Shown: positions 17,355-57,542, numbered from the stretch's first letter. The stretch is 64,000 nt of DNA from Candidatus Omnitrophota bacterium (GCA_043798375.1 JAZDOS010000042.1:5037-69036), one strand, 5' to 3'. Notes: generated by a model not told the origin, from the letters alone. Translations and numbers: made by a program.

Positions 17355-17386
17355 CCTCAAAGGTTGCCTTTAGGCAACCTTTGAGG
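17355..17386 (+). repeat. 5'-leader hairpin of the AGGTTGCC/GGCAACCT palindrome family, between the promoter and RBS of giant gene 2
   Basis: cctcaaaggttgcc ttta ggcaacctttgagg. The same core recurs at 48304-48341 and 57415-57542. Confidence 0.7.
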
Positions 17387-17411
17387 TTGGCAAATTGTAA
17401 GGAGATAAAAT

Positions 17412-20400
17412 ATGATATTCAGGAAAACAATTTCGGTTTTTGTAATCTTCACATTTCTGTTCTCGAACGTCGCTTTTGCCGTACCGGCTAAATCCAACAT
17501 TGAACTCGCAGGGAATAATGAGACGGTCACGACCCCCGAGAGCATAGTTGTACCGCGTGATTTCGGGCTTGTTAAGAGTAAATTTAACGGCAACTCCGGC
17601 AAACTTATAGTCCACATCCAGGACGCGCACTGTAATTATGAAGCCCAGTCTAATATCGTTAAAATATTGGAGGGATTGGTAAAGAATTACTCTTTTGGCC
17701 TGGTGGCGGTGGAAGGCGCCGACGGTTTCATCGACACTTCGTGGTTCAAGGCGTTCCCGGACGATGAGGTGAGAAAAGAGGTCGCCGATTATTTCATGAA
17801 GAAGGGCGAGATCACCGGCCCCGAATTTCTCTCCATCACCACAAACCTGCCGTTTAAACTATTCGGCGCCGAAACCCGCTCCTATTACATCCAGAACCTG
17901 AACGCGTTTACCTCAAGTTACCCATTAAAAGACGAAACCGAAAAATATTTCAACTCTATCAAAGCCGTTTTAAACCGTTTAAAAGGCTTTATATACAGCG
18001 AAGAGCTTAAGGTTCTCGATACAAAGATTCAGGATTACGAATCGAAGAAACTTCAGTTCAATGATTATATCAGATTCCTGCAGGCGATAGCCGAAAAACA
18101 TAAGATAAATTTAAGAAGCTACGATAATTTCTTCAGGCTCGTGAGCGTCCTCATATATGAAAAGAAGATAGATTTTAATATCACCGACAAGGAGAGAAGC
18201 GCGCTGATTGATGAATTAAGCAAGGCCGTCGCCAAAGACCAGCTTCAGCAGCTCGTAACGCAGTCCATATCATTCAAATCAGGTAAAATTTCATCCGCCG
18301 AATATTACGCGTATCTGAAGAACCTCGCCGCCGCGAACGGCATTGATCTTTCGAAGAAATACCCCAATCTTTATAACTATATAATATATAACGCCGTCTA
18401 CTCCAAAATAGAGAATGAAAAATTATTCCAGGATTTAAAGAAGATAGAGATCGCGGTCAAAGAGAAGCTCTTTGCCAACGATGACCAGAGAGCGCTCGAA
18501 AAACTCTCCCGCCACATCGACATACTTCTCGGCCTCATCAATATAAAGCTCATGAACGGCGATTTCGATTACTACCAGGCCGATAAGAGCGAGTTTACAT
18601 CGGAATATTTCGAGGATTTCATAAAGAAGAAGGTTATCCAGTTCGGCCTTGCCTATGATGTAATGGCGCCAACCGAGGCAGTCGCGCAAAGCATACCGAA
18701 ATTAGAGGATTTCTACTCAATAGCCATAAAGCGCGACAAGGCGCTCGTCGATAACACGCTCGACGCGATGAAGAAAGAGAAACAGAACATCGCGGTCCTT
18801 GTGACAGGCGGCTTCCACTCAGAAGGCATAGCCAAACTCCTCGAAAAGCAGGGCGTCTCCTACATGGTCGTCTGCCCGTCTATCACAAAAGACGTCCCCT
18901 CACCGTACATACAGATACTGACGAATCAACGCACCCCCCTTGAGGACATTCTTATCGGCACCGCCCACGCGAAGGAAGGGATGGTCGCCGCGCCTTCAAG
19001 AGCACAACTTATTACCATGCCGGACAGCGCATTCAAAGACTATGTCGGAAGACTTGAGGCCGGCGAAAAGCTTGCCCTGGCAATAAAGGCTGCAGAAGAA
19101 GAATGGGTGGACGTAACCGTGAGCGGCGCTGAAGGAGCCGCTACACCTGTCGGCAGAGTTAATATCGAAGGGCTCGTCGACCGCTTAAAGGAAGATACGG
19201 GGGCAAGCATTGCCGGTATAGTGAATGAGTTAAGGCACGACCTCCATCAGAGATGCGACAGATTACATTTATCGAAGATCTCAATCGAGCATCTTCTTGC
19301 TCTTCTCGAGGAAAAGCTGACATCGCCAGAGTTTAAAGCCATTACTGACAAATTCGAGGCCGAATACAACGAGCGCGTTGCAAACCGTGCGGCGCTGGAA
19401 GCGCGCCGTAAAGGCGCCGCGGAATCCGGCCGGAAAAGCCCGGGCAGGGACGCAGTAGCGGGAATCGGCGAGCGCGCTTTAAGGGCAGATGAGTTCGGCC
19501 GTTACGACAGCAATCTCGGAGCAAATTTTGAGGCAAGCAGGGTTGAGACAAGAGACGAGGAATTACCGGGCCTCAGGGTCCATGTCCACGGCGATATCAA
19601 CGGCAGTTTCGAGGAAGGAATAGCCGCGCAGAATGACGATGCCCTTCTGAACGGCGGGGCTACGATTCCATTTCCAAGAGTGCATCCCGGGACATACAGA
19701 GGCTCTGCTCTTTCGCGGGAAATCGATGGGCAGATCGAAGAGATCGCTGGGCAGATACATGTAAGCAGGTACATATGGGACAGCGAAAAGATCGCGGATG
19801 TTTCTGACAGTATCAAAATAACCAAAATGGATAAAGAGGTGGTAGGAAACCACGAAAAGGCCCATCTCGATATATTCGCAGGCAAGGGCGATATATTCAG
19901 GCTTTGGCTTCTCTATCTGGAGTACTGCGCGATATATAAGAAATTCGTAGACCAGGAAGACTTTGTAGATAATATTCAGAGCTGGGTAAGCCTTTTGACA
20001 AAATGGGCCAATAAAGGGACAAATGATAAAGGAGATATTGTTAAGGACGCCGAAAACAAGATGCCTATAAAGGAATGGGCGGTGATGAACGGTGTGCCGC
20101 TTGATGCTCGTCCCGGGGATTTCCCGAACTGCAATACCATCGAGATCCGGAAGAAGATAGCGGCATTACAGGCCTTGAGGATATACAAAAGGGCCAGATG
20201 GGCGCTGACCAATATAGACGAGAAAAAAATGAGGATAGCGCTTACCGAGGCCTATGTGCTGGCTGCGAATTACGGCGATGACGAACTGCTCAGTAATATC
20301 ATAAACCTGATCCCCGCACAACCTGGTATGAGGAAAGAGATATGCGGCAGGGCTATACTTCAGATAGCCAAGTGGTATCCGCTATGGATAAGGAAGGACC

Positions 20401-23400
20401 TTTTTAGGACAGCATCCCCGGGAACCATGGAACTTCTGGACCAGTGGCGTACGGAATCAGGCGCGGACCACGAGATAACGCCTAAAGATGTTGTCGCGGT
20501 CATCATGGCCGGCGGCGGCGGAGAAAGGATGTGGCCGCTCAGCGTTACGGAAGACCCCAAACAGATAACCGATATCATTGACGAGAAACTCCTTGTCATG
20601 GCCGTCCGCAGGGTGATAGAGCATCTGGGAAGGAAGAATGTCTACATCCAGACCATCCCAAAGCTTAAAGATAAGATCGTAAAATTGTTAAAGGATGCCG
20701 GTCTGAATATCCCGAAAGAAAATATATTCGCCGAGCCGGAATCTGCGGACACATCAGGCGCGATAGGCTATGCAGCCGCAAAGTTAAAGAGGTTGGGCAG
20801 AGGCAATGACGTGATGTTCGCATGTACCGCCGACCATTATATAGATGTAACCTCACCCGATTTCAGGAGCGCCTATATGCACGCGGCTAAGATAGCCAAG
20901 CACAATCAGGCGATAGGTACGTTGGGCATCGATCCCGAGCCAATAGGCGTATCGGAAGAATACGGCTGTATAAGGAAAGGCGGAGAGACCTTTTATGAAG
21001 GAGGCCATGTAGCCGCTAAGTTCATCGAAAAACCGAAAGGGAAAGACGCGAAAGATATATTCAAGGAAAGACTCCCTGATAATAGCCACGTATGGCTTTA
21101 TAATAGCGGGATGTTCATAGGAAGACCCGATATATTTTTAGAGGCGTTCAGGCAAGTCGCTCCTGTCTACGGCGAGGCGTTCGATGCCATAGCGGACCCG
21201 GAGGCTACGCTGGAGACGGAGGCGAAGGCCTTCAAGCAGTTAGGTGAGAATAAAAAGAAGGGTGGGTTTATTCATTCCGGAGAACCGACAGGATTCCGCA
21301 AGGGCGTATCGGTGGATTATGTATTAGCCCAGCCCGTCTCGAAGATGGAAACCGACAGGATCGCGCTATTTATGGTTGCGGGCACATTCAAATGGAAAGA
21401 TATAGGCAGTTATGCGATGGCCTATGCATATTATAAAGATGATTATCTCGGAACGCCTGACAAAGGAGACGCATCCGCAAAAACAGGTGTCTATAAAGAC
21501 GCAGATAATAATATCGTTGTGAACAAATCCTCCGACATAACACCGGCGCCCTATGTTAATTTTGAAAGCTGCTCAGAATGTTTTGTCATTGCCAATGATC
21601 CTGATGCGAGGATAACGCTTAAGAATCTCACAAGAACGATAGTAATCTATAACCCGACTACAAAATCGGTTATGGTGGCGCCTATTAGCGTAGAAGGCGA
21701 TTCTATAAAGAAGCTTCAGGGCAGGATAGGGGCGAGGGCCGCCTTAAAAGGTTATGTATTGGGCAATTTATCAGGGATTGAGCCGTCAAAAAAGAGAGCG
21801 GTGATTAGGGGCAGGTATGATGATAAGACAAGCTCAATTGTCATGGAAGAAGCTGACCAGAAGAATAATGTTGTCGAAGAGTATCTGCAGGGCAACGGCA
21901 TAATCATCGGATCCGAAGGATGCAGTATATCTGTAGGTGTTGGGCTCGCCACAATTGTTGATATGAAAGACGTCTCTCTGGACGTGCGACAGTCAACCGC
22001 TGACGGCATAAATATATCAGTGGAGAAGAAAGGCCCTGCCGCGGCATCGGCAGGTACGGCAGTTTCCGCGGGGATCACACTCGCGCATCTAGAGACACCT
22101 GCGGAGCGGATAGGGAACACAAGGATGATGCTTGAGCGGCTGGATATAAATCACATTACGCCCGCCGCATATGCCGGCGTTTACGGCGTGAGCGAGGATA
22201 TCGCGAAAACGGAGATAGGTAAGATATACGAAGAAGATATCGATAGAATAATAAAGATCGCGGCAGGCATCTCCAGGCTTAAAATCGATAGGAGCGACCC
22301 CGCTAAAATAGCCCATTTGGACGGCGAGATCGAAAAGCTGCAGAAGACGGTAAAAGATATCGTGCTCGAGAGAAAGAGCCGCGGCACGCTCGTTCCAGGA
22401 TGGATAAGGCTTGTCGTAGAAGGCATAAAAGACAGGGCGGAGTACAAGGAATCTTCACGGGTCAGGAGCGAAACGGTCCGGCTGTGCAATACCGTCTTTG
22501 CCGAATCAAAGGAAAACGAAATATTACAAGATGCCGCCAGGACAGAGAAGGAGCGCATCTTAAAAGATAAAGAGCTTATTACCTTGAGTCCGGCCATATG
22601 CAGGCGCGATTCAGTCAGGGCAGAAGACGCCGAACTTGAATTATCGGATACCATAGCCAATATATTGGGCAAGTCTATGGTGATGCTTATGCTGAAACAG
22701 ACAAAATTGACCGATCCGTCTAAACTAAAAATGGTCGTGGGCAGAGAATCGCGGATCACTGGTCGGCGCATATTATCCGCTTATAAGAGAGGCCTCCTTG
22801 ATATGGGCGCCAATGTTTTGGACATCTCCAAGACGGAGATCGATACCCTTGAAGGAAGGCAGGTAAGCGAGGTGGTAAGTACGCCTCTCATCTATTTTGC
22901 CAATCAGCTTCTCAACCCGTCCTCTGCTACCGAGATAACCGCAAGCCACCTACCTAAAGCCGCAAACGGTATTAAACCGACCATCATGAAAAGGAACGTT
23001 ACAGCGGATGAGATGAAGGTGTGGGAAGAACTGACCCATGATATTATTGACGGGAAGATCAAACCGTCCGGAAACAAGGGAGCCGAGACGAGCGATGCAT
23101 CGGTCTTGGGTTATTACCATTTGATGCTCAGCGCTACCCTGGCCGAAATAATAAATGATGAATCAAATGCCGCAGGACAGGCCCTCGTGAATAAGTGGCG
23201 CCTGGGGAGAAACGATGTCCTTAATAATGGGAAGACTTTAAAACAAGCGCTTGATGATATAAAGAACGAGGTCGCGGCATATATGGGAAGTAATCCTCTG
23301 TGCGGCATGAAGATGGAAATAGACCCCGGCAACGGCTCCATGGGGCCGATAGCGATTCCCTTACTGATAGGCCTTGGAGCAGAAATCCCGGCCGCGCCGA

Positions 23401-26400
23401 CGCACATACCGGACGGAATATTTGAAGGACTGGGAAGGCATGACTCAAACCCAAATATCCCGGATAACCTGCGTATCCTCATACGGAGAGTCTTCGATAA
23501 CAAGGCAAGTATGGGGGAGGCCTTTGACGCCGACGGCGACAGGCTCGGCGTTATTTCAAGCGAAGGCGACTATCTGCAGGGCGACGATATAGCGTGCCTT
23601 ATAGCTCCCGTACTTATAAAGATGAGAAAGGAATTGACCGGCAAAGAACCGGTCGTTATCGTCAATAATCTCTGCAGTGATCAGCTGAAACAAGTTATCA
23701 GGGAGGCGGGCGGTAGGGCGGTTGAATGCAATGTAGGTTTCACTAATGTAAAAGCGAAGATGACCGAGTTAAGAGATCAGGGTAATGAAGCGATCATGGG
23801 CGTGGAGCTTTCCTCACACATTATGATGGATATGAATTTCGACTCGGATGACGCGTTTTTCGCATCGATTGTGCTTATAGGCATATTGAAACAGAAGGCC
23901 CGCGAGCTTAGCGTGACACCGCAGGAGGTAATGGGGCTCATGCGGAAGGAATTAAATGCCAGATATTTTAAGGTAAATCCCATAGGAGAGGGCCGCGTAT
24001 TGATGTTAACAGACGATACGCGCAAAGAGGCGGCCGCGAAAGCAGTGGAAGAATGCAAGAGGAGGATCGGCGATCCAGAGTATCAGTATATATACGAGAA
24101 GAATCCTGATAGGGAGACGGAAGACCTGGAACGGGAAGGCGGGATCAAGATAGATGTAAAAGAGAGAGAGACCGGCGAGCTTATGGGTTGGTTTGTTATA
24201 AGGCCGTCCGGTACCTCGGCGGAGATAGTCGTCACCGCGGAGTCGGTAGTCGGCGTCCATGCCGAATCGGAGGCAAATGCCATTATGAACGCCCATAAGA
24301 TCAAACAGGAGGTGATAGACCTTCTCCGTCCTTATGAGAGATGGGTTAAGGTTGACGAGATACAGCCCTCGGACTTTGGCGCTGTCTTCAAAGCAAGGCT
24401 CGAAGGCAAGGATGTCTCTGAAGTTAGAGCTGTCGAGAGAGCTGATATCTTCAGAAAATCAGTCGGCATGCTGGCTGTGGGGCAGGCAGATGAAACGCCG
24501 CTTACGCCCGGCGCGGATGAAATAATCGCGTCGATTATGGAAGAGGTTGTGGTGCCCGAAGGCATAAGCGAAGCGAGGAACGCGGCGGCGGGAGAGCGAT
24601 TGATGCAGGAAATAAAGGGTAGCCTTCCCGGCGAGCATACGGATAGGATCGCCTCCATATATAATGAAGTGGTAGCGAGGGTTAAAGCGGCGCGTCTCGG
24701 GACCCGCATAGCCGCTCAGGAAACGACCGCGCAGTTTCTCGCAACTCAGGAAGTGAGGGACGTTACGGTTAATGGGGAAACAGGCGCCCTTATTGTGCCG
24801 TCATCCAGCGATTACAAGGACAGGGGCCAGCACGATTCTACTTACATGAAACTAAGGGGCCTGGCCGCGAATGCCTTGGTTAGCGCGCGGAAATTGTTCG
24901 CGCGGCACCAGTATGAGACGGTTTATTCCATGAACCACGGCGCTCTTCCGATCCCGGAGACGTTGAGGCAATTGGCGTCTTATAACAACGTAAGCCCGGA
25001 AAATTACAGGATTCACGATACATTCTTCCCGCAGGTGAATCCGCTGTTCCCGGGAAGCATACAGTACCAGGTTACGGGCGCCCATTACCAGGCGAATGTC
25101 TTTGACATAAAGTATGTTACCGAGGGTAAAGGCCTGCAGTATCTTGTAAAGGTTGACAGGAAGGCGTTTGAGGAGACCGGCAAGGTCGTCGTGGTCGATA
25201 CGATCGTGCAGGAGATGGCGCCCGGCAAATGGGTATACGCCCTGCCCGGCTATATAGATATAGTGGTGAATAAAGGGGCATTGAGATTTAATGATGTTTC
25301 CTATGAATTGAGCCCGCAGGAACTGGAAAAACTCGAAAACGAGACCGGCTTTAAAATAGATATGGATACGAATTTCTATGAGAAACTGCCGGCGAAAGGG
25401 ATGGCGCATCTATTCTACATGTATAACGGCGAGACGCGTGTTGCGCTCAACCCCGAAGTTATGCCCGAAGGTAACCTCAATATAAGGGTAATGTCAGCTG
25501 GCCTTCCGACGATGGCCGAAAAAGAACTTAAAGTAGGCCTCATGGAGATTTACGCGGCCAATCCAGGCATAGTTCAGTCCATGATGTCGCTTCGATATCT
25601 TGAGACAGTTAATGAGAAGATGCCGTTTGCGCCTGCCATGATACAGGCAATTCATCCGAAAGAAACCATCGTGCCGGAATCGATCGATGTCTTGAATAGC
25701 AGCGCTCAAGAAGCGGCCTTATTCTTTGAGGCATTAGAACAAGAGATCGGGCAAGGGAATCCTATAGAATTCTTACCCAATGTGAGATGCGGCAGGAAGA
25801 ACAATCAGACTTGGGGCGTGCCTGTCAGCGTGTCGATGATACTCGAAGGGCTGGGGGCTCGAACTCGGCAGGAAAAAGAGGCGCTTGTCGATAGGCTTAA
25901 GATTGATATCGATGATGTGGTGAGCGAGCTCTGGATAGGCGCGGACATGGAGCATCCGTCAATGGTAAATGTAAAGACAAAGTATTCAGCGCCTGTATAT
26001 GTGCTATTCGGTAATTATCCCGAAGAAACTTTCGGCAAGGATCATTTAGACGCATTCGGCCGGGATTTCGGCTTGTTGATAAAACACCTCAATTCGGCCA
26101 GATACTTATCCGCCCAGAACCATGTATTTACCGAAGGGGTAATACCTTTAAATAAAGAATCGGTTGCGGTGATGGGATTCGCGAGAGATATAGGGCCCCA
26201 GGAATTGGAAGAAGAATTGATCCGGGGAAAAGAAGAATCGCTTAATAGGGTTGTTCTTATGGAGGGAAAACCCTATCTTGTTCCCAAAGGCATGATGCAT
26301 GCCTATGGGCCTGTCAATGTCCTTGAGATAAAGGAACAGAGCCTTGGAAAACCTGATACGGGTATGACCAATTCCATATATGATAGGTTAAGCGTGCCGG

Positions 26401-27605
26401 CAGGACAGAAGACGCCTCCGGCCGAATGGCCAACGATGAGACAGAATAATCCGGCGGAACTTGCAAAGGCTGTTGGCATCGATTCCAGGAGGACCGGAAA
26501 AGACGTATTGACCATGGCCCGCGAGGCATGGCAGAGGGCATTAAACGTTATGGCCGAGAACAATATGCTGAAGGAGGCAAAACCTCAAGATTATGAATCG
26601 CCGGTTATAAACTTACGTCCCCAAGCGATAGGCGGTAAACTGGAAGGCATGATGTTAGAGCCGGGCTTTGTCGTTGAGAGGTTTGAGATCCATGCAGGCC
26701 AGACGATGTTAGCTGAGGAGCTCACGTTCGGCAGGGCGAGCATAATCATGGTGCAGGAAGGCGCGGTGGATTTGACAACAGAAAAAGATGTGCCGATAAC
26801 GACATTGAAAGCCAAAACAGAAGATAGGTACAGGCTTAATCTATCTGCATATCCGTCTTATAAGATTACAGCCGCTCAGGGCCGGAAGGCTATCGTTGAT
26901 GTGATGTATAAACCTCTTCCGGCCGAGGCGCTCGTCAACACGGGCTTTGAGGCAATTCGCGCCAATCTTCCCGCTGTGCGAAGCCAGAAAGTTCATTTGC
27001 TCACGACTTCAAAAGCGTTCCGAAGGGGTGACGTGCGTGACCGCGAACCCGGCTCGTTCAGATATGAAAAGGAGATTTTAAACCGCGTATCCGACGGCAG
27101 GGTGGAATTATCGGAAGTCATAAGCTGTGACGCGGGCGAATTGAAAGAGGCCCTGCAGGGTTTGATGAAGGGCGAAGAAGGCGTCAATTACGTCGTCCAA
27201 CTTACCGAGGGCGAATTTAATTCGATCAAAGACGATAAGGACATAGCGAGGCTTTTGAAAGATACGAGGCTCATGGTTCTTCCCAATGTCAAGCTTGGCG
27301 AAAACCGCGGCATACCGTTCATCAGAGAGATTGAATCGGCCGGTGTAATACTCGGTAATACAAAACCGGAGGATATCCGGGATAAGACGGCTATAGCCGG
27401 ATGGTTGAAGACCGTAATGTCGAAGTTGACCGGCAACAAAGCGATCGACTGGGAGATGCTCGCGACGCTATTGAAGTCGCCGGACCCGGCGATGTCATTC
27501 GCCGACAGGATAAGTATTCTGCTCAAGAACCTGCAGGTCAGGATCCAGCCGCACAAGGCCGATGAAGGCGTGCGTGAAAGGCGGCAGCTCTTGTGGAGCG
27601 TGTAA
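17412..27605 (+). CDS. Giant secreted multidomain protein (3397 aa) with an N-terminal signal peptide, an embedded ManC-like mannose-1-phosphate guanylyltransferase domain, an embedded ManB/PGM-like phosphohexomutase domain, and large novel regions
   Basis: aaggag RBS 8 nt upstream of the ATG. Signal peptide MIFRKTISVFVIFTFLFSNVAFA. Uninterrupted 10.2 kb ORF. Confidence 0.85.
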   Translation: MIFRKTISVFVIFTFLFSNVAFAVPAKSNIELAGNNETVTTPESIVVPRDFGLVKSKFNGNSGKLIVHIQDAHCNYEAQSNIVKILEGLVKNYSFGLVAVEGADGFIDTSWFKAFPDDEVRKEVADYFMKKGEITGPEFLSITTNLPFKLFGAETRSYYIQNLNAFTSSYPLKDETEKYFNSIKAVLNRLKGFIYSEELKVLDTKIQDYESKKLQFNDYIRFLQAIAEKHKINLRSYDNFFRLVSVLIYEKKIDFNITDKERSALIDELSKAVAKDQLQQLVTQSISFKSGKISSAEYYAYLKNLAAANGIDLSKKYPNLYNYIIYNAVYSKIENEKLFQDLKKIEIAVKEKLFANDDQRALEKLSRHIDILLGLINIKLMNGDFDYYQADKSEFTSEYFEDFIKKKVIQFGLAYDVMAPTEAVAQSIPKLEDFYSIAIKRDKALVDNTLDAMKKEKQNIAVLVTGGFHSEGIAKLLEKQGVSYMVVCPSITKDVPSPYIQILTNQRTPLEDILIGTAHAKEGMVAAPSRAQLITMPDSAFKDYVGRLEAGEKLALAIKAAEEEWVDVTVSGAEGAATPVGRVNIEGLVDRLKEDTGASIAGIVNELRHDLHQRCDRLHLSKISIEHLLALLEEKLTSPEFKAITDKFEAEYNERVANRAALEARRKGAAESGRKSPGRDAVAGIGERALRADEFGRYDSNLGANFEASRVETRDEELPGLRVHVHGDINGSFEEGIAAQNDDALLNGGATIPFPRVHPGTYRGSALSREIDGQIEEIAGQIHVSRYIWDSEKIADVSDSIKITKMDKEVVGNHEKAHLDIFAGKGDIFRLWLLYLEYCAIYKKFVDQEDFVDNIQSWVSLLTKWANKGTNDKGDIVKDAENKMPIKEWAVMNGVPLDARPGDFPNCNTIEIRKKIAALQALRIYKRARWALTNIDEKKMRIALTEAYVLAANYGDDELLSNIINLIPAQPGMRKEICGRAILQIAKWYPLWIRKDLFRTASPGTMELLDQWRTESGADHEITPKDVVAVIMAGGGGERMWPLSVTEDPKQITDIIDEKLLVMAVRRVIEHLGRKNVYIQTIPKLKDKIVKLLKDAGLNIPKENIFAEPESADTSGAIGYAAAKLKRLGRGNDVMFACTADHYIDVTSPDFRSAYMHAAKIAKHNQAIGTLGIDPEPIGVSEEYGCIRKGGETFYEGGHVAAKFIEKPKGKDAKDIFKERLPDNSHVWLYNSGMFIGRPDIFLEAFRQVAPVYGEAFDAIADPEATLETEAKAFKQLGENKKKGGFIHSGEPTGFRKGVSVDYVLAQPVSKMETDRIALFMVAGTFKWKDIGSYAMAYAYYKDDYLGTPDKGDASAKTGVYKDADNNIVVNKSSDITPAPYVNFESCSECFVIANDPDARITLKNLTRTIVIYNPTTKSVMVAPISVEGDSIKKLQGRIGARAALKGYVLGNLSGIEPSKKRAVIRGRYDDKTSSIVMEEADQKNNVVEEYLQGNGIIIGSEGCSISVGVGLATIVDMKDVSLDVRQSTADGINISVEKKGPAAASAGTAVSAGITLAHLETPAERIGNTRMMLERLDINHITPAAYAGVYGVSEDIAKTEIGKIYEEDIDRIIKIAAGISRLKIDRSDPAKIAHLDGEIEKLQKTVKDIVLERKSRGTLVPGWIRLVVEGIKDRAEYKESSRVRSETVRLCNTVFAESKENEILQDAARTEKERILKDKELITLSPAICRRDSVRAEDAELELSDTIANILGKSMVMLMLKQTKLTDPSKLKMVVGRESRITGRRILSAYKRGLLDMGANVLDISKTEIDTLEGRQVSEVVSTPLIYFANQLLNPSSATEITASHLPKAANGIKPTIMKRNVTADEMKVWEELTHDIIDGKIKPSGNKGAETSDASVLGYYHLMLSATLAEIINDESNAAGQALVNKWRLGRNDVLNNGKTLKQALDDIKNEVAAYMGSNPLCGMKMEIDPGNGSMGPIAIPLLIGLGAEIPAAPTHIPDGIFEGLGRHDSNPNIPDNLRILIRRVFDNKASMGEAFDADGDRLGVISSEGDYLQGDDIACLIAPVLIKMRKELTGKEPVVIVNNLCSDQLKQVIREAGGRAVECNVGFTNVKAKMTELRDQGNEAIMGVELSSHIMMDMNFDSDDAFFASIVLIGILKQKARELSVTPQEVMGLMRKELNARYFKVNPIGEGRVLMLTDDTRKEAAAKAVEECKRRIGDPEYQYIYEKNPDRETEDLEREGGIKIDVKERETGELMGWFVIRPSGTSAEIVVTAESVVGVHAESEANAIMNAHKIKQEVIDLLRPYERWVKVDEIQPSDFGAVFKARLEGKDVSEVRAVERADIFRKSVGMLAVGQADETPLTPGADEIIASIMEEVVVPEGISEARNAAAGERLMQEIKGSLPGEHTDRIASIYNEVVARVKAARLGTRIAAQETTAQFLATQEVRDVTVNGETGALIVPSSSDYKDRGQHDSTYMKLRGLAANALVSARKLFARHQYETVYSMNHGALPIPETLRQLASYNNVSPENYRIHDTFFPQVNPLFPGSIQYQVTGAHYQANVFDIKYVTEGKGLQYLVKVDRKAFEETGKVVVVDTIVQEMAPGKWVYALPGYIDIVVNKGALRFNDVSYELSPQELEKLENETGFKIDMDTNFYEKLPAKGMAHLFYMYNGETRVALNPEVMPEGNLNIRVMSAGLPTMAEKELKVGLMEIYAANPGIVQSMMSLRYLETVNEKMPFAPAMIQAIHPKETIVPESIDVLNSSAQEAALFFEALEQEIGQGNPIEFLPNVRCGRKNNQTWGVPVSVSMILEGLGARTRQEKEALVDRLKIDIDDVVSELWIGADMEHPSMVNVKTKYSAPVYVLFGNYPEETFGKDHLDAFGRDFGLLIKHLNSARYLSAQNHVFTEGVIPLNKESVAVMGFARDIGPQELEEELIRGKEESLNRVVLMEGKPYLVPKGMMHAYGPVNVLEIKEQSLGKPDTGMTNSIYDRLSVPAGQKTPPAEWPTMRQNNPAELAKAVGIDSRRTGKDVLTMAREAWQRALNVMAENNMLKEAKPQDYESPVINLRPQAIGGKLEGMMLEPGFVVERFEIHAGQTMLAEELTFGRASIIMVQEGAVDLTTEKDVPITTLKAKTEDRYRLNLSAYPSYKITAAQGRKAIVDVMYKPLPAEALVNTGFEAIRANLPAVRSQKVHLLTTSKAFRRGDVRDREPGSFRYEKEILNRVSDGRVELSEVISCDAGELKEALQGLMKGEEGVNYVVQLTEGEFNSIKDDKDIARLLKDTRLMVLPNVKLGENRGIPFIREIESAGVILGNTKPEDIRDKTAIAGWLKTVMSKLTGNKAIDWEMLATLLKSPDPAMSFADRISILLKNLQVRIQPHKADEGVRERRQLLWSV
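20480..21440 (+). other. Mannose-1-phosphate guanylyltransferase (ManC/GMP-like NTP-transferase) domain inside giant protein 2
   Basis: AVIMAGGGGERMWPLS (GGxGxRLWPLS), EPESADTSGAIGYAAA, TADHYIDV, TLGIDPEPIGVSEEYGCIRKG, KFIEKPKGKDAKDIF...WLYNSGMFI, WKDIGSYAMAY. Confidence 0.7.
22630..24300 (+). other. alpha-D-phosphohexomutase (phosphomannomutase/phosphoglucomutase-like) domain inside giant protein 2
   Basis: Active-site serine loop ITASHLPKAANGIK (TASHNP-like), Mg loop FDADGDRLGV, sugar loop GVELSSH, phosphate loop IRPSGTSAEIVV (RPSGTEP-like). Confidence 0.65.
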
Positions 27606-27611: not shown

Positions 27612-28135
27612 TTAAACGGTTGCGGTTGCGCGGCTCGCCACGGTTTTCGTTTATCGTAAAACGTTATGGAAGAAAAGAAAACCATCAGAAGTTTTCATGA
27701 TTTGGAAGTTTATCAAATTGCATATCAAGCGATGCTTGACGCATTTAAACATATTTTGCCCAAACTGCCTTCAGAGGAGAAATACGACTTGGTTGATCAG
27801 CTCAGACGTTCGACCAAAGCCATTCCTCGCTTGATAGCAGAAGGGCATTCTAAAAGACATCAGAAAAAAGGCTTTCAAAAATACCTAGATGATGCAATGG
27901 CAGAATCTAACGAAACAATTGTTTCATTGACCCAGGCGAAAGATTTATATTCTTCAGTGATTGATATAAAGATATGCGAAAGTCTAATAGATAATTACGA
28001 TAAGATAAGCAGGCAGTGTTATAAGTTGGGAATTGCTTGGGATAGATTCGGCGATCGTAAATTAATCGACGCAACCGATAGACGATAGACGAAACGAGCA
28101 GCGCAACCGATAGACGAAAGACGTAACCCGATAGG
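27612..28135. mobile_element. Full-length copy of an inverted-repeat element that carries a four-helix-bundle ORF. It is the parent-like member of a 6-copy family; five ORF-less ~100-bp copies lie elsewhere in the window
   Basis: Left arm cggttgcggttgcgcggctcg (27616-27636) is the reverse complement of right arm acgagcagcgcaaccgatag (28094-28113). The AT-rich cargo ORF lies between GC-richer flanks. The short copies keep both arms and the 'gttatg' start context but lack the ORF. Confidence 0.6.
27666..28088 (+). CDS. Four-helix-bundle protein (TIGR02436 / 23S rRNA intervening-sequence protein family, PF05635-like)
   Basis: FHDLEVYQIAYQAMLDAFKHILPKLPSEEKYDLVDQLRRSTKAIPRLIAEGHSKR matches the family hallmark ..FeDLevWqkA..l...iY.lt..fPkeEkygLtsQlrRAavSIpsNIAEG..R. 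Confidence 0.75.
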   Translation: MEEKKTIRSFHDLEVYQIAYQAMLDAFKHILPKLPSEEKYDLVDQLRRSTKAIPRLIAEGHSKRHQKKGFQKYLDDAMAESNETIVSLTQAKDLYSSVIDIKICESLIDNYDKISRQCYKLGIAWDRFGDRKLIDATDRR

Positions 28136-35170: not shown

Positions 35171-35187
35171 TTCTAACCAGGTTAGAA
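35171..35187. repeat. CTAACCAGGTTAG-family palindrome overlapping the stop codon of the oxidoreductase, followed by a ggttagaatatg direct repeat (x2)
   Basis: ttctaacc a ggttagaa. The same core is at 17125-17152 and 55095-55197. Confidence 0.7.
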
Positions 35188-36409: not shown

Positions 36410-36431
36410 TGAGTAAAGAGTAAGTTGTGCC

Positions 36432-40821: not shown

Positions 40822-40860
40822 ATTCAGCCTTGGCCGTAGGGGAGGTTTAAACCTCCCCTA
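40822..40860 (+). terminator. Rho-independent terminator: 14-bp GC-rich stem, 6-nt loop, T-tract
   Basis: ggccgtaggggagg tttaaa cctcccctacggcc tttt. Confidence 0.7.
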
Positions 40861-40902
40861 CGGCCTTTTGAGTAACGTTTAAAAATTACCGGCGGGAAGC
40901 TT

Positions 40903-47696: not shown

Positions 47697-48287
47697 ATGA
47701 AAAAGTTAATGGTCATAGCTCTGGCGATAGCCTTTGCATTCGGCTTCTCGAGCTTAGCCCGGGCCGAAGAGAAGGTCATATTCGGTTTTGAAAAGGATAC
47801 CCAGGGCTGGGAGATACCGGAATGGGCGCTTGAGCAGGAGGATCACGTAGCGAAGACGGCGGAGTCTTCCAAAGATTTCGCTAAAGAAGGCAAGGGGTCG
47901 CTTAAAGTAATGGCGGACTTCCCGGGCAAGATATGGGCGGCCGGGCTGGTGGAGGATTTTGAGTATTTTGACTGGACGCCTTACAAGGCCATATCCGTCG
48001 ATGTCTACATACCCAAAGACGCGCCGGTCGGATTAAAGGCAAAGATAGTATTGACGGTAGGCGAAGGCTGGAAGTTCATCGAAATGGCGCGCTCGATCGC
48101 GCTCGTCCCGGGAGAGTGGGTTACGATCACCGCGGATCTTATGCCCGGAAGCGAAGATTGGAAGAGGACGGTAGTTGACGATAATTTCAGGAAAGACGTC
48201 CGTAAGATAGCCGTCAGAGTCGAGTCGAACAGGAAACCGGAATATAAGGGCCCATTCTACGTCGATAATATAAGGCTTACAAAGTAA
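47697..48287 (+). CDS. Secreted ~22 kDa beta-sandwich/CBM-like protein (paralog A), with signal peptide
   Basis: MKKLMVIALAIAFAFGFSSLARA signal peptide. Shares VIFGFEKDTQGWEIPEWA, LTVGEGWK and YVDNIRL motifs with 49461-50063. Confidence 0.6.
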   Translation: MKKLMVIALAIAFAFGFSSLARAEEKVIFGFEKDTQGWEIPEWALEQEDHVAKTAESSKDFAKEGKGSLKVMADFPGKIWAAGLVEDFEYFDWTPYKAISVDVYIPKDAPVGLKAKIVLTVGEGWKFIEMARSIALVPGEWVTITADLMPGSEDWKRTVVDDNFRKDVRKIAVRVESNRKPEYKGPFYVDNIRLTK

Positions 48288-48303
48288 TTTGAATAACCGT
48301 ATT

Positions 48304-48341
48304 AACCTTTAAGGTTGCCTACGGCAACCTTAAAGGTTAAT
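48304..48341 (+). repeat. AGGTTGCC/GGCAACCT-family hairpin in the leader of the second GH-A hydrolase gene
   Basis: ttaacctttaaggttgcc tac ggcaaccttaaaggttaa. Confidence 0.7.
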
Positions 48342-48414
48342 ATGGGTTAGGGTAGCAGGGTCTTGACCATGCCCGCGAAAAGTAGTATAATATATATTCT
48401 CATAAGAGGTTAAA

Positions 48415-49452
48415 ATGATTAAAAGACTTATATTGATAATCGTTATAATGGTTCTCTTTTGCGGGCCCGCCTTCTCTTATGAATGGCAAAAGGGTATTTG
48501 CTATACTGCCTGGGCGAAAGATAAATACTCGTCCACTGCTTCCGACGAATCCCTCCGGGCCCTCTCTGAAACCGGGGCTAATTGGGTAAGCATCCTGACC
48601 ACATGGTATCAGGATACGTGTCACGATACGGATATACACCCCACCGAGAAGACCCCAAGCGACGAAAGCATCATTCACGCCATCAAAGAAGCGCATTCTC
48701 TCGGGATGAAGGTCATGATAAAGCCTCATCTCGATATCATAGACACTTCCGACGGGAGCTGGCGCGGAGATATAGGATGCAAGATAGATACCGACTGGGA
48801 CGCATGGTTTGAGAGTTACAAAGATTTCATTGTCCATTATGCCGTATTGGCGGAGGAGAACAAGGCCGAGATGTTGTGCATCGGTACCGAGCTTACATCC
48901 ATTTCCGCGATAAAAGAGGATAAGTGGAGAAACGTAGTAATTAAATCGGTCAGAGAGGCATATAAGGGGCCGTTGACATACGCGTCAAACTGGAATGATG
49001 AATACGGGCACATCAAATTCTGGGATGCCCTTGACTACGTAGGCATCGATGCCTATTACCCGCTTGTGGAAGACAAGGCTGTGCCGACGTTAGAAGAGAT
49101 AAAGAAAGGGTGGGAGCCGTGGGTGAAAGACCTCGAGGCGTTTCAGGAGAGGGTCGATAAACCGATAATATTCCCGGAGGTAGGATATTGCAGCGCGGAC
49201 TGGACGGCGAAAACCCCATGGGAAGAGCTTACCGGACATACGAATGTGAAGCTTCAGGCGGACTGTTACGAAGCTCTTTTGCAAACTTTCTGGCAGAAGG
49301 ATTGGTTTTACGGGGTCTATTGGTGGAGATGGGGGACAAATAAGGACTTCGGCGGCCCCAACAACAGGGGTTATATTTTCCGCAATAAACCCGCCGAGAA
49401 GATCGTGGAAAAGTGGTATGAGAAGCATGTGCCGACAAAGTTGAAGTACTAA
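48415..49452 (+). CDS. Secreted clan GH-A (GH113/GH5-like) glycoside hydrolase, a paralog of the catalytic domain of 43500-45158
   Basis: Signal peptide; CIGTELTS and IFPEVGY motifs; collinear with the 43500 catalytic domain (WYQD..., SDESI.HAI..AH.LGMKVM.KPH.D). Confidence 0.65.
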   Translation: MIKRLILIIVIMVLFCGPAFSYEWQKGICYTAWAKDKYSSTASDESLRALSETGANWVSILTTWYQDTCHDTDIHPTEKTPSDESIIHAIKEAHSLGMKVMIKPHLDIIDTSDGSWRGDIGCKIDTDWDAWFESYKDFIVHYAVLAEENKAEMLCIGTELTSISAIKEDKWRNVVIKSVREAYKGPLTYASNWNDEYGHIKFWDALDYVGIDAYYPLVEDKAVPTLEEIKKGWEPWVKDLEAFQERVDKPIIFPEVGYCSADWTAKTPWEELTGHTNVKLQADCYEALLQTFWQKDWFYGVYWWRWGTNKDFGGPNNRGYIFRNKPAEKIVEKWYEKHVPTKLKY

Positions 49453-49460: not shown

Positions 49461-50063
49461 ATGCCGAAATTAAAAATATTTTTAATTCTTTTAATAACAG
49501 TTGCCTTTTTTACCGTCCTGCCGGGATTGGCATATTCAAAAGAGATCGTTCTATACGGTTTTGAGAAAGACCCTCAAGGGTGGGAGATACCCGATTGGAC
49601 GATGGGTAAAGCCGACCATGTCGGCCGCCAGATAAGCGTCTCCGAATTTAACGCGAGCGAAGGCGGATATTCGCTGGAATTCGATGTTGAATTTTCCGGC
49701 AGTCCGCGATGGGAGGGCGCATACGTCGAGCGCGTTATAGACGTTACCGACTGGAGCCCGTTCAGCTGCCTGTCCGTCGACATCTTCCTTCCGAAGAACG
49801 CGCCGCAGGGCTTGAGGGCGCGGGTTATATTGACCGTAGGCGAAGGCTGGAAATGGACTGAAGGCAACAAGGCGTTCCCGCTTACCCCGGGCGAGTGGAC
49901 TGTCATAAAGCTGGACCTCACCCCGGATAGCATGTCCTGGCGGAAGTTCATAGACGACAACTTCAGGAGCGATATAAAGAAGCTGGGCATCAGGATCGAG
50001 TCTAACGGCAAGATCGCGTACAAGGGGCCGGTCTACATCGACAATGTGAAGCTGTCAGATTAA
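49461..50063 (+). CDS. Secreted beta-sandwich/CBM-like protein (paralog B)
   Basis: Signal peptide; VLYGFEKDPQGWEIPDWT, LTVGEGWKW, YIDNVKL. Confidence 0.6.
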   Translation: MPKLKIFLILLITVAFFTVLPGLAYSKEIVLYGFEKDPQGWEIPDWTMGKADHVGRQISVSEFNASEGGYSLEFDVEFSGSPRWEGAYVERVIDVTDWSPFSCLSVDIFLPKNAPQGLRARVILTVGEGWKWTEGNKAFPLTPGEWTVIKLDLTPDSMSWRKFIDDNFRSDIKKLGIRIESNGKIAYKGPVYIDNVKLSD

Positions 50064-50158
50064 AGTAAAAAGTAAAAAGTAAAAAGGTAAAAGTGCAAGT
50101 AAAAATTAAAAATTTTGACTTTTAAATTGTAATTTTTCCTTTTTCCTTTTTACTTTTA
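50064..50158. repeat. AT-rich ~95-bp imperfect palindrome built from GTAAAAAG / CTTTTTAC repeats
   Basis: aagtaaaaagtaaaaagtaaaaaggtaaaagt ... acttttaccttt reverse-complement arms. The same motif forms the first 30 nt of ORF 43500. Confidence 0.7.
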
Positions 50159-50182
50159 CCTTTAACTTGGGTAGCAAGTGTA

Positions 50183-53820: not shown

Positions 53821-53838
53821 ATTTAAACGAGGTGAGAA

Positions 53839-55098
53839 ATGGCGTTACGGGAAGGGACATTAAAAAGCGAGCGCTTCACTGAAAAGGAACGGCGCAATCT
53901 TGCCATACTCGATATCATCAGAAGGACCAGAGAAGTCTCAAGGGCCGAGATTTCTAAGATCACCCACCTTAATATAGTAACAATATCCAACTACATAGAT
54001 GATTACATTGCCAAAGGCCTCGTCCTCGAGAAGGGATACGATGTATCCAGCGGCGGAAGAAGGCCGGAACTCCTGGAGATCAATTCTAAATTCGGATACA
54101 CTATCGGCATAGACCTCGGTTCGCCCCATATCATGGAGAATTCCATGATTGTGGGCACGCTGGTGGATACCGCAGGGAAGATCATCTGCAAGGTGAAGAC
54201 CAAAAAAGAGGAAGAGTCCCAGGAAAATTTTATAAACAGGGTAACAGGCATTGTCAGGGACCTTTACGGCAGGTCTAAAGTGGAAAAGGCGAGGGTGAAA
54301 GGCGTCGGGATAGCGATATGGGGTGTCCTGGACAGATATAAAGGCACTGTGAGGTATGCGGTCGAGAAAGGCAGCGTCTTCAGCTACAACGCGCTTCAAT
54401 CTTCAATCGAAAAGGAGTTTAGCGTCCCCACGCTCGTAGAGCATGACGCTACAGCCGGCGCCCTGGGAGAGAAGTGGATGGGGCTGGGCTTGAGCCAGGA
54501 GGCCGAGAACATACTTTATATGTGCTCCGATTCCAGCTGCGGCCTTATCCTGAACGGCGAATTGTATTACGGCGTCTCAAAAAGCGCCGGAGAATTGAAT
54601 ATAAACCCTCCATCGCCCGATTATAAGGACGATAACTGCTGGGCAAAATATGATTACGGATGCGGCTTCAGGTCGAGGGGCATAGATCTCGGGATTTCTT
54701 CGCGCGCGAAATCCCGTTTAAGCCAGAATAAAAACGGCAATTCCAAAATCCTCGAGCTTGTGAACGGCAAGCTTGACAGCGTTTCACTTAATACGATAAT
54801 AGAAGCGGCCAGGCTTCAGGATAAACTTGCGATAGAGCTTCTGTCCGAAGCGGGAGATTATCTCGGCGCGAAGATATCGTTTCTTATAAACCTGTTCAAC
54901 CCGGATTCCATCGTGATCGGAAGAGGCATGGAAAAGGGCGGCGACATATTCATGGACGCCGTGAGGAAGAGCGTTAAAAAGTGGGCTTACGAAGAATCGC
55001 TCAAGGTCGTCAGGATCGTGCCGGCGTCCCTCGGCGAGGATTCTATAGCCTGCGGCGCGTCGGCGCTTGTAATGCAGCAGATATTTGCGAAGATCTAA
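53839..55098 (+). CDS. ROK-family transcriptional regulator (N-terminal wHTH plus sugar-kinase-like domain)
   Basis: LAILDIIRRTREVSRAEISKITHLNIVTISNYI HTH; ROK fold GIDLGSP...GIAIWGVLD...CGCG-like Cys cluster CSDSSCG. Confidence 0.75.
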   Translation: MALREGTLKSERFTEKERRNLAILDIIRRTREVSRAEISKITHLNIVTISNYIDDYIAKGLVLEKGYDVSSGGRRPELLEINSKFGYTIGIDLGSPHIMENSMIVGTLVDTAGKIICKVKTKKEEESQENFINRVTGIVRDLYGRSKVEKARVKGVGIAIWGVLDRYKGTVRYAVEKGSVFSYNALQSSIEKEFSVPTLVEHDATAGALGEKWMGLGLSQEAENILYMCSDSSCGLILNGELYYGVSKSAGELNINPPSPDYKDDNCWAKYDYGCGFRSRGIDLGISSRAKSRLSQNKNGNSKILELVNGKLDSVSLNTIIEAARLQDKLAIELLSEAGDYLGAKISFLINLFNPDSIVIGRGMEKGGDIFMDAVRKSVKKWAYEESLKVVRIVPASLGEDSIACGASALVMQQIFAKI

Positions 55099-55197
55099 CC
55101 AGGTTAAACCTTGTGGTAACCTGACAGATTTAACCTGGTTAGTAACGCTCTAACCAGGTTAAACCTTGTGGTAACCTGACAGATTTAACCTGGTTAG
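55095..55197. repeat. Two tandem 48-bp units, each a 14-bp-stem hairpin of the CTAACCAGGTTAG family, between the ROK gene stop and the binding-protein gene
   Basis: ctaaccaggttaaaccttgtggtaacctgacagatttaacctggttag repeated twice with a 7-nt spacer. Confidence 0.85.
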
Positions 55198-55209
55198 AAA
55201 AAGGGAAAG

Positions 55210-56477: not shown

Positions 56478-57392
56478 ATGAAGAAACAGGCGGTGTTTGT
56501 CGTTGCGGTGTTTATGCTTGCCTCTTTGATATGCGTTGAAAAGGCGCATGCCGGCGCCTGGACAGTCCCGAAATACAAAGTCTGGGCGGAGTATTACATG
56601 AAATGGAATTACGCGAAGGATACCTATAACGAGAGCGAGAATTTTACGTCGAGCGGCAACCATTCGAAGAACTTCAGGTCATGGGAATTCGTGCAGGAAC
56701 CGAAGCTGGAGTATGGTATTACAGACTATCTTAACTTCCTCTACAGTATGGAATTTAAAGAGGGCCACTACAAGGAATACGACAGGCCTCCAAGCTGGGG
56801 CCCTTTTACCAAGAAGAACCACGGCCTCACAAATGTCAAAATAGGAGGCAAGTGGCGTTTTCTCGAAAAACCGGTCGTGCAGAGCCTGCAGGGCAAGTTT
56901 TTTATATATCCCGGCTATGGGAATTACGTAAGCGAAGCAAATGGCGGAGCCGACGGATATCCGTATCAGCCTTCGATAGGCTACGGCGATGACGCGTTCG
57001 AATTGAGATGGCTCATGGGACAATCGTTCAAATTTCCCATCAGGGATGATTGGAGGCTGCCGGTCTACTGGGGCACCGAGATAGGCTACAGGTGGAGGAG
57101 TAAAGCCGTCTGCAACGATATCCCGTACTTCTTCGAATGCGGCTTCTGGCCATCCTCCTGGTTTTTGGTCAAGACGGAACTGGACGGATACAGGTTCCAT
57201 GGCGGCACGGGCAGTATCAAGGAGAGCTACGGCATATGGCGTATCGGCGGCGTATGGCAGGTCTTCGGCGACAGCACTCTCAGGGCCGGCAATAAGCTCT
57301 TCAATATAGAATTTCAATACGGCATGGTGGTCTGGGGAAGGAATACGAACGCGGCGCAGGAATGGGTGCTGAAGGTCCAGACACAGTTCTAG
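56478..57392 (+). CDS. Putative outer-membrane beta-barrel protein
   Basis: Signal peptide, alternating amphipathic aromatic-rich strands, C-terminal ...VQTQF ending in Phe. Confidence 0.35.
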   Translation: MKKQAVFVVAVFMLASLICVEKAHAGAWTVPKYKVWAEYYMKWNYAKDTYNESENFTSSGNHSKNFRSWEFVQEPKLEYGITDYLNFLYSMEFKEGHYKEYDRPPSWGPFTKKNHGLTNVKIGGKWRFLEKPVVQSLQGKFFIYPGYGNYVSEANGGADGYPYQPSIGYGDDAFELRWLMGQSFKFPIRDDWRLPVYWGTEIGYRWRSKAVCNDIPYFFECGFWPSSWFLVKTELDGYRFHGGTGSIKESYGIWRIGGVWQVFGDSTLRAGNKLFNIEFQYGMVVWGRNTNAAQEWVLKVQTQF

Positions 57393-57414
57393 CTGATATA
57401 ACCTCGCTAATATA

Positions 57415-57542
57415 ACCTCCGAGGTTGCCAAAGGCAACCTCGGAGGTTGACAGGTAAACAGAGGTTGCCAAAGGCAACCTCTGAGGTTGACAGGTAAGCA
57501 AAGGCAACCTCAGAGGTTGACAGGTAAGAGGTTGACAGGTAA
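57415..57542. repeat. Degenerating tandem array (about 4 units) of an AGGTTGCC-aaa-GGCAACCT palindrome followed by GAGGTTGACAGGTAAG, ending 3 nt before the next gene's ATG
   Basis: cctccgaggttgccaaaggcaacctcggaggttgacaggtaaaca / gaggttgccaaaggcaacctctgaggttgacaggtaagc / aaaggcaacctcagaggttgacaggtaag / aggttgacaggtaag. Confidence 0.85.

Follow-up and report, generated by a model that had tools for sequence, protein, structure and literature searches.

Three shared intergenic hairpins in a Candidatus Omnitrophota contig as probable copies of a dispersed REP-like palindromic repeat

The window analysed here is a 64,000-nucleotide stretch of DNA from a Candidatus Omnitrophota bacterium (GCA_043798375.1, JAZDOS010000042.1:5037-69036), in which all genes lie on the + strand. 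Near-identical palindromes occur in three of its intergenic regions: before a giant open reading frame (ORF; site 1), before the gene of a GH113 hydrolase (site 2) and before a small ORF (site 3). The first-pass annotation of this DNA had noticed the palindromes and had taken them for a hairpin common to the 5' leaders of three genes that might be co-regulated. The hairpin and its relatives elsewhere, referred to as family 1, are described below, and the data suggest that they represent a small dispersed repeat resembling the repetitive extragenic palindromic (REP) elements of other bacteria. The features of the window that concern family 1 are collected in Table 1.

The core of the palindrome, AGGTTGCC-N3/4-GGCAACCT, was located at 17361-17380, 48312-48330, 57422-57440 and 57462-57480 on the + strand and was found in none of 100 dinucleotide-preserving shuffles, so the sharing originally noticed is far beyond chance. 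The 8-mer AGGTTGCC itself occurs 10 times in the window against 1.24 expected, nine of the 10 within these palindromes. The full unit reads AACCT-xyz-AGGTTGCC-loop-GGCAACCT-z'y'x'-AGGTT, which forms a perfect 16-bp stem from 16-nt arms around a loop of 3-4 nt, and each site contains one complete copy. The triplets quoted from the window as covarying (CAA/TTG, TTA/TAA and CCG/CGG) are correct. The hairpin, a perfect palindrome of 35-36 nt, is assembled from two inverted short palindromes (AACCT-xyz-AGGTT twice) and is extended to ∼45 nt by a G-rich tail of 9-10 nt that is present on one side only. In most genomes this tail reads G(G/A)GGTGGTT; in the lineage of the window it is GACAGGT(A/G)AG, and GGACAGGT or GAATAGGTT abuts the hairpin less commonly. 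Tails of the types G(G/A)GGTGGTT and GACAGGT resemble a Shine-Dalgarno (SD) sequence.

The three sites differ in their surroundings. At site 1 the hairpin ends 23 nt before the start codon and the giant gene uses an SD of its own. The same intergenic region contains a core-deleted relative of the family, in which two AACCT-CGT/ACG-AGGTT modules are fused directly and, with an outer 11-bp inverted repeat, form a 24-bp perfect palindrome. The site 2 hairpin begins 16 nt past the stop codon of a CBM-like ORF (47697..48287) and precedes the promoter of the GH113 gene. Site 3 is an array that occupies the whole 152-nt gap from the stop codon at 57392 to the ATG at 57545, a gap with no credible promoter. 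A position between promoter and ribosome-binding site (RBS), as first proposed for all three, therefore applies to site 1 but not to site 2, where the hairpin follows a stop codon upstream of the promoter, or to site 3. Similarly, the four-unit tandem array described at site 3 is real in so far as the 14-mer tail AGGTTGACAGGTAA is repeated four times (57444, 57484, 57514 and 57529, the last ending 2 nt before the ATG), but the units are one complete hairpin and three that are progressively truncated. The small ORF that follows is retained at 87-90 aa in all syntenic relatives, directly upstream of htpX. Its earlier description as an MshEN-like, c-di-GMP-related protein found no support in Pfam, where the sole match was to DUF4388 below threshold (E 8e-4). 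RNA folding of the regions around sites 1, 2 and 3 gave -31.8, -36.7 and -68.5 kcal/mol (z-scores -7.4 to -8.2), and in the predicted folds the tail or SD is left unpaired, outside the stem.

Table 1. Features of family 1 and adjoining sequences in the window
Feature	Position	Strand	Remarks
Site 1 hairpin (AACCTCAAAGGTTGCC-TTTA-GGCAACCTTTGAGGTT)	17353..17388	+	5' leader of giant ORF 17412..27605; R1 61.4 bits; -31.8 kcal/mol, z -7.4
Site 1 promoter, sigma-70-like TTGACA-17-TATACT	17288..17316	+	11/12 matches; upstream of hairpin
Site 1 canonical SD, AAGGAG	17399..17404	+	7 nt before ATG 17412
Core-deleted relative of the hairpin family	17212..17260	+	same intergenic region as site 1; R1 40.7 bits; -44.3 kcal/mol
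Site 2 hairpin	48304..48338	+	arms reach 48297-48345; -36.7 kcal/mol
GH113 promoter-like TTGACC-17-TATAAT	48363..48391	+	downstream of site 2 hairpin; gene 48415..49452; kept in relative L037
Site 3 unit 1, complete hairpin (CCG/CGG triplet, loop AAA)	57414..57448	+	palindrome, R1 and fold
Site 3 unit 2, 5'-truncated hairpin, 11-bp arms CAGAGGTTGCC/GGCAACCTCTG, then AGGTT	57459..57488	+	sequence
Site 3 unit 3, loop and 3' arm only (CAAAGGCAACCTCAGAGGTT)	57499..57518	+	sequence
Site 3 unit 4, AGGTT and tail only	57529..57543	+	sequence
Small conserved ORF, 90 aa	57545..57817	+	start directly after site 3 array

The distribution of the element was assessed by scanning collections of genome contigs (one genome per species) and metagenomes, which cover genomes other than the window's own, with the exact pattern AACCTNNNAGGTTGCCN{3,4}GGCAACCT; this pattern specifies 21 bases and has an estimated chance expectation of ∼0.5 matches. 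Thirty-four loci were recovered from the genome contigs, 33 of them from six metagenome-assembled or single-amplified genome (MAG or SAG) assemblies. Five of these assemblies are titled Candidatus Omnitrophota (JAUYDX01, JBHPHU01, JBAZEP01, JAZDPX01 and JAPLMC01) and the sixth, CAZWYD01, is titled Planctomycetia; the MAG JAUYDX01 contributes 24 exact copies in 21 loci. The remaining locus is a half-palindromic match in an alphaproteobacterium, consistent with chance. The metagenomes yielded 24 further loci, the element being present in 23 metagenome contigs, and viral contigs none. A covariance model (R1), the check proposed with the original observation, was built from 32 copies and run on 247 kb of loci, where it detected ∼16 additional, diverged copies that define subfamilies with compensated stems (AGGTTGCGGC/GCCGCAACCT, AACTTCGCAAGTTGCCC/GGGCAACTTGCGAAGTT and AACCGCGTAGGTGGCC/GGCCTCCTACGCGGTT); one copy (L028:3113) has an unrelated upper stem on the same foot and tail as family 1. 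Nearly all copies are extragenic, between ORFs. The 16-nt arms are identical in genomes that range from 38% to 50% in GC content, and homologous proteins of the window and of the JAUYDX01 and L039 genomes, compared as putative orthologues, are only ∼44% identical. No orthologous junction common to different species was found among the genome-contig matches.

An alignment of 77 copies demonstrated that the stem is maintained by true compensatory change, as had been proposed from the three sites of the window. Pairing is possible in 98.6% of stem cells, in comparison with 89.7% in shuffles and 23-44% in slid controls, and double compensatory changes were found at 11 of the 16 pairs (83 double-change cells against 9.9 in shuffles). 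Twelve different xyz triplets occur, all complementary save two U.G cases. The stem is bulge-free and pairs almost purely by Watson-Crick rules, with only 4 G.U and 2 A.C cells among 1232, too few for a comparison of G.U with A.C to tell which strand is the RNA. The loop is represented by ∼30 different sequences, each about as frequent as its complement (AAA 7 and TTT 5, GTA 6 and TAC 5, TTC 6 and GAA 6, TGC 3 and GCA 3). Given this parity and the near-pure Watson-Crick pairing, the covariation proves a maintained hairpin and not an RNA function. Constraint on the stem is also evident from a pair of orthologous copies with the same downstream gene, one from a SAG (L029) and one from a metagenome (L052), in which 0 of 32 stem, 3 of 3 loop and 2 of 9 tail positions differ, in flanks that are ∼15% diverged by our own count.

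The copies have a uniform order along the genes, namely a same-strand stop codon, 0-5 nt of A/T-rich sequence, the hairpin, the abutting tail, 1-6 nt (typically 2-4 nt) and an ATG. Start codons were counted if they opened an ORF of 60 aa or more and lay no further than 35 nt past the tail; 56 of the 77 copies have such a start, most commonly at 11-13 nt (27 copies), so that the bias to the 5' side of ribosome-binding sites noted at the outset is strong. In 54 copies the end of a same-strand ORF falls at -10 to +38 nt relative to the hairpin (median ∼2 nt), and in nine of these the stop codon is a TAG inside the stem (CGTAGG). When starts in the JAUYDX01 loci were compared crudely, an SD of the GGTGGT type was seen at 13 of the 24 that are associated with a hairpin and at 1 of 219 other ORF starts, which carry AAGGAGG- or GAGGGG-type SDs instead. 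The tail is therefore part of the repeat unit and not the generic SD of the genome. With the 16S 3' end taken to be GAUCACCUC, the tail GAGGTGGTT can pair with it over 9 nt (two G.U) by standard rules. Where the hairpin lies 18-30 nt from the start codon, a second, ordinary SD is found in between (L031, L011, L033 and site 1 of the window).

To compare the same junctions between genomes, relatives with the same gene order were recovered by a search with the HtpX protein of the window: L035 and L063 at 88% protein identity, and L037/L038 and L064 at 81%. The gap at site 3 measures 152 nt in the window, 64 nt in L035 and 21-26 nt in L063, L037 and L064. That of L035 contains exactly one family-1 hairpin, with the CCG/CGG triplet, a TTTA loop in place of the AAA of the window and the tail GACAGGTGAGG before the ATG; those of L063, L037 and L064 are without the hairpin and have an ordinary AAAGGCGG SD. 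At site 2 the promoter is kept in L037 and the hairpin is absent. Because syntenic relatives lack the hairpin there, sites 2 and 3 are insertion or expansion polymorphisms. The other long intergenic hairpins of the window (those of the GGTTGCGGTTGCGC and TAACCAGGTTA families and those made of heptamer repeats) are also missing in the relatives, whose gaps are 13-27 nt; more than one hairpin family, indeed several, must therefore have colonised the genome of the window, and family 1 is the one common to the window and its distant relatives. Comparison of related genomes thus shows copies of family 1 gained, lost and tandemly expanded, with a stem that stays constant while the flanks diverge.

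These data appear to suggest that a small dispersed REP-like palindromic repeat native to Omnitrophota accounts for the three sites and acts as an intercistronic hairpin and RBS cassette; a probability of about 0.58 is assigned to this reading. Several observations weigh against it. The gene calls on which the counts of starts depend were crude ORF calls. Approximately eight of the 77 copies are reversed, with a tail that does not serve as an SD, and have a start solely on the side away from the tail (L021 twice, L034, L020 and L024:2064), and the tail at site 2 of the window has no ORF downstream. The copies were ascertained with the exact core pattern, by which the invariance of the core columns is partly a matter of construction, although the covariation of the triplets is unbiased. 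The scarcity of G.U pairs and the flipping of the loop fit a DNA palindrome, maintained by template switching or by an enzyme that recognizes single-stranded DNA, at least as well as selection on RNA. Placement between stop codon and SD could simply reflect the sole spot at which an insertion is tolerated in packed operons. Finally, co-transcription inside polycistronic mRNAs, folding in the cell and any effect on stability or translation are inferred from sequence.

The strongest rival is that of a neutral parasite, which persists only at places where it is harmless. Under this explanation the palindrome would be a purely selfish repeat, of the REP type or resembling a MITE (a miniature transposable element with inverted repeats), which spreads at the DNA level, has no function and owes its position and orientation to where insertions are tolerated. 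It accounts readily for presence/absence and copy-number polymorphism at orthologous junctions, for the reversed copies and for the perfect palindromes with almost no G.U and with flipping loops; several unrelated hairpin families share the same type of gap in the window, and 27 copies of AACAACTTGACAC... occur in JAUYDX01. It does not account for a tail that is conserved within the unit and stands at SD distance from the start in most copies, nor for the apparent replacement of the ancestral SD by the tail at site 3. The stem, moreover, is invariant between the orthologous copies while their flanks have diverged, and identical arms across genomes so distant in protein identity and GC content are hard to square with an unconstrained parasite. 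A repeat without function thus seems unlikely, though it has to be taken seriously.

A further explanation is that the palindrome serves at the DNA level as the target of some chromosomal protein or enzyme, for instance a recombinase, a Y1/HUH enzyme that acts on single-stranded hairpins, or a binder of the gyrase or nucleoid-associated protein type, and that any effect on RNA is incidental. The perfect palindromes and their identity across deeply diverged genomes are compatible with this, and the REP elements and bacterial interspersed mosaic elements (BIMEs) of E. coli bind gyrase, IHF and Pol I (PMC3184786). A candidate enzyme also exists in Omnitrophota, where a conserved single-copy family of Y1 transposases resembling the REP-associated tyrosine transposases (RAYTs) is widespread (2026 homologues, mostly one contig each). 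One member, encoded by L037 (161 aa, 13616-14101, minus strand), scores 78.2 bits against NCBIfam NF047646, 'REP-associated tyrosine transposase', for which the cut-off is 80; the window has no RAYT-like gene at the syntenic position. In L037, L065 and L066 the RAYT-like gene has on both sides a conserved inverted repeat, GAGACGCTTTCC-N6-AATCGGGA (gene and flanking repeats at 13429-14247, 9818-10570 and 9803-10542 respectively), and further gaps of L065 contain this repeat too. These findings suggest that Omnitrophota have a bona fide system of the REP-RAYT type that is distinct from the family-1 hairpin. No Y1 transposase gene was detected by tblastn near any family-1 copy in 534 kb of loci, and with this and the different flanking repeat the RAYT-like genes examined were rejected as partners of family 1, although a cognate gene may lie further away. 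Nor would a DNA-level site explain why the tail is polar and SD-like and stands at a fixed distance from the start codon, and such a site is considered improbable.

The model of the first-pass annotation, in which a cis-regulatory RNA or operator serving one regulator co-regulates the giant gene, the GH113 gene and the small ORF, fared worse. It draws on an identical core at three loci within 40 kb, on the true leader position of site 1 and on a conserved stem sequence that could reflect sequence-specific recognition. However, dozens of copies per genome lie beside unrelated housekeeping genes. Pfam matches of the neighbours place hairpins between a TrpB-type PALP gene and TrpA and between a GATase gene and a TrpD-type Glycos_transf_3 gene, and other neighbours are GlyQ, an argF-like OTCase, KARI (ilvC), P5CR (proC), Ldh/Mdh and HisF. 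The downstream genes function in amino-acid, nucleotide and lipid metabolism, tRNA charging and redox reactions, with no coherent set, and the copies therefore mark no shared regulon for the three genes of the window; relatives with the same operon are without the element. A transcription-factor operator is not supported, as the hairpin is downstream of a promoter at site 1, upstream of one at site 2 and without one at site 3, and as the variable triplets are always complementary and do not vary independently, which an operator does not require. A sigma-54 promoter (GGCAAC...TTG) was rejected by eye, the spacing of the GG and GC elements being off by ∼4 nt. A dedicated riboregulator fits poorly with an unconstrained loop and a bulge-free stem, which differ from the usual ligand- or protein-specific riboregulator. 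Rfam gave no match in the window at gathering thresholds and none at E<=1 for four loci; at permissive E values the site 1 region matched only generic hairpins resembling miRNA precursors, far below threshold. With an incoherent gene set, no conserved unpaired bases and an SD outside the stem in the predicted folds, a gene-specific cis-regulatory RNA is not supported, and co-regulation of the three genes through the hairpin is very improbable.

The idea of intrinsic or unconventional terminators or attenuators that share their sequence by happenstance is hardly credible either, for although copies begin close after stop codons, an A-rich 5' flank (a T-tract on the opposite strand) is found in 18 of 77, and the hairpins at site 2 of the window and in L034 are followed by a promoter at the end of a transcription unit, in exception to the placement within operons, none of the 77 copies is followed on the tail strand by five or more T within 8 nt of the stem, a terminator scan of the + strand was negative at the three window sites, and the copies within trpB-trpA and trpG-trpD have no room for a new promoter. 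The distance from hairpin to next start codon in these trp pairs is 11-18 nt, which excludes a role as an operon-end terminator; the original view that the hairpin is not a canonical terminator thus stands. An antisense terminator was rejected on the small number of A-rich flanks. A 17-bp perfect GC-rich palindrome at 40832-40870 of the window (GGCCGTAGGGGAGGTTT/AAACCTCCCCTACGGCC), followed by TTTT, is the sole canonical-looking terminator among the intergenic regions inspected.

The dispersed REP-like repeat was compared with known systems. REP elements are stem-loops of ∼35 bp that lie between cistrons and affect mRNA stability (PMC3184786). Family 1 has the form and the behaviour of such elements: it is a short stem-loop palindrome within the ∼21-65 nt by which REPs are defined (PMC3184786), its copies are dispersed and extragenic, and its presence is polymorphic at orthologous sites. 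With the REPs and BIMEs of Enterobacteria and Pseudomonas it shares stem-loops of ∼35 nt in many dispersed extragenic copies, often intercistronic and sometimes clustered, with family-specific variants, and co-transcription, common to those elements, would apply to the Omnitrophota element as well (PMC3184786, PMC3337134). It differs from them in a perfect 16-bp stem, in polarity, in an SD-like tail at SD distance, in a core that is common to genomes with ∼44% protein identity and in that no cognate RAYT was found. REPIN-RAYT systems are likewise built of two inverted short palindromes with changes of the inner sequence that preserve the hairpin, and RAYT-like Y1 transposases occur in Omnitrophota; but REPINs are ∼90 bp with a spacer and flank their own RAYT, whereas the RAYT-like genes of L037, L065 and L066 have an unrelated repeat on either side. 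Membership of the REP-RAYT class is therefore not established, given the different flanks and the lack of a nearby Y1 gene, and the likeness is one of form and genomic behaviour.

Mycobacterial MIRUs are similar in being intercistronic in operons, oriented with the genes and arranged in variable tandem arrays, as at site 3 in comparison with the single copy of L035, and in having ends that touch stop and start codons (PMC3184786). They measure 40-100 bp, however, do not form perfect hairpins and contain small ORFs of the bridging kind, of which the Omnitrophota element has none. ERIC of Yersinia and the Correia elements of Neisseria are MITE-like repeats within mRNAs whose folding alters the processing or stability of the neighbouring sequence according to orientation (PMC3184786), as may be the case for family 1. 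They measure 100-150 bp, have terminal inverted repeats and in some cases promoters or IHF sites, in contrast to an element of 45 nt with an RBS-like tail. An integron attC site, an imperfect palindrome of 57-141 nt with RYYYAAC/GTTRRRY and extrahelical bases, was rejected, for the 35-nt palindrome has a perfect, bulge-free stem and lies between housekeeping genes, no integrase was seen in the loci and the AAC...GTT termini are the sole resemblance. Stabilizing or insulating 5' stem-loops next to an SD and the intercistronic RNase III hairpins of phage T7 likewise have a strong hairpin between cistrons or directly 5' of an SD that is left unpaired. Those are single-locus structures, unlike the Omnitrophota element, which is multi-copy and conserved in sequence. 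On these comparisons the element is best described as a polar, RBS-bearing new form of REP-like intergenic palindrome, specific to Omnitrophota.

How such a cassette would work can be proposed from its anatomy. Within a polycistronic mRNA the stem-loop (-32 to -37 kcal/mol by prediction) would fold away the inserted sequence and leave the tail single-stranded, and the tail may serve as the SD of the downstream cistron or replace it, as it appears to have replaced the ancestral SD at site 3. The stem may present a barrier to exonucleases on both sides. Translational coupling is reported to be reduced by structure just past the stop codon (PMC12548453), and mRNA stability to be altered by REPs (PMC3184786); a coupling-blocking hairpin joined to a strong SD of its own accordingly makes a coherent design. 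The cassette would thus be an insulator with an unpaired strong SD, through which initiation downstream becomes independent of the upstream context. In the window, site 1 would be a leader copy upstream of a gene with its own SD, site 2 a copy lodged after a stop codon and ahead of a promoter, and site 3 an expanded array that supplies the RBS region of the small ORF.

A more ambitious version, which we regard as doubtful, is that the cassette is selected throughout the phylum. A trans-acting partner (the ribosome, an RNA-binding protein or a processing nuclease) would recognize the invariant stem, and the modules would punctuate operons and set the stability of mRNA segments together with independent initiation of each cistron. 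Such selection would explain why genomes whose proteins are only ∼44% identical have the same 16-nt arms. With the adjoining GG, the lower stem AACC(UC)GUAGG/CCUAC(GA)GGUU weakly resembles helix 45, the GGUUGG junction and the start of the anti-SD tail of 16S rRNA, with a score that was reached by 6 of 5000 shuffles and that depends on an arbitrary loop and a target chosen post hoc. For this reason mimicry of helix 45 was dropped; the comparison was with an E. coli sequence, and the likeness is a lead and not evidence.

Further hairpin families and other features were seen in the course of the analysis. A 140-aa ORF (27666..28088) matches PF05635, '23S rRNA-intervening sequence protein' (E 1e-18), and is bracketed by another palindrome family with the left arm cggttgcggttgcgcggctcgccacg and the right arm acgaaacgagcagcgcaaccgatagacgaa; the segment 27606-28144, which separates two giant or large genes, looks like an inserted stem of the intervening-sequence type that encloses an ORF. 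The GGTTGCGGTTGCGC hairpin family has five members in the window (27618, 45177, 45978, 52575 and 57833, + strand) against none expected, ∼30 nt upstream of canonical SDs, and is absent from 64 other loci including the syntenic relatives; it is apparently a genome-specific intergenic repeat. A third family consists of (T)CTAACC(A/T)GGTTAGA palindromes (17112-17150, 35171-35187 and 55095-55198 in the window, and 736-772 in L035). A 55-bp unit of this family is present twice before the SBP gene at 55210 and in a miniature version in the orthologous gap of L035, and there is none in L037 or L064. Long heptamer-repeat hairpins occupy the intercistronic gaps 36391-36500 and 50060-50168, in which (AGTAAAG)n is opposite (ATTACTC)n and (AAAGTAA)n opposite (TTTTTCC)n; L037 has 13 nt in the orthologous gap. 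The JAUYDX01 loci (L001-L034) contain an unrelated 43-nt palindrome, AACAACTT(G/T)ACACT....ACA.TGT....AGTGT(C/A)AAGTTGTT, in 27 copies in ∼160 kb. It is placed in the order stop codon, hairpin, G-rich SD and ATG (L001:968-1010 and L030:5554-5596, for example) and does not occur in the window. The ORF downstream of the hairpin at 6777-6811 (minus strand) of L005 encodes 679 aa, by eye a putative beta subunit of a 2-oxoacid:ferredoxin oxidoreductase with an intein-like insertion.

Omnitrophota are uncultured bacteria for which no description of non-coding repeats was found; a literature search for palindromic, hairpin or intergenic repeats of Omnitrophota or Omnitrophica returned nothing relevant. 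Perfect-hairpin families fill at least one third of the larger intergenic gaps in the window. Recognition of family 1 as a probable dispersed repeat would help to avoid the false inference of regulons from shared 'leader' motifs in Omnitrophota genomes, and the annotation of start codons and operons would be improved where the tail marks true starts. The element may also provide a natural example of a compact hairpin and RBS insulator that is open to reporter tests. Should it prove to be under selection rather than parasitic, the takeover of translation-initiation regions in housekeeping operons by a repeat family would be unusual.

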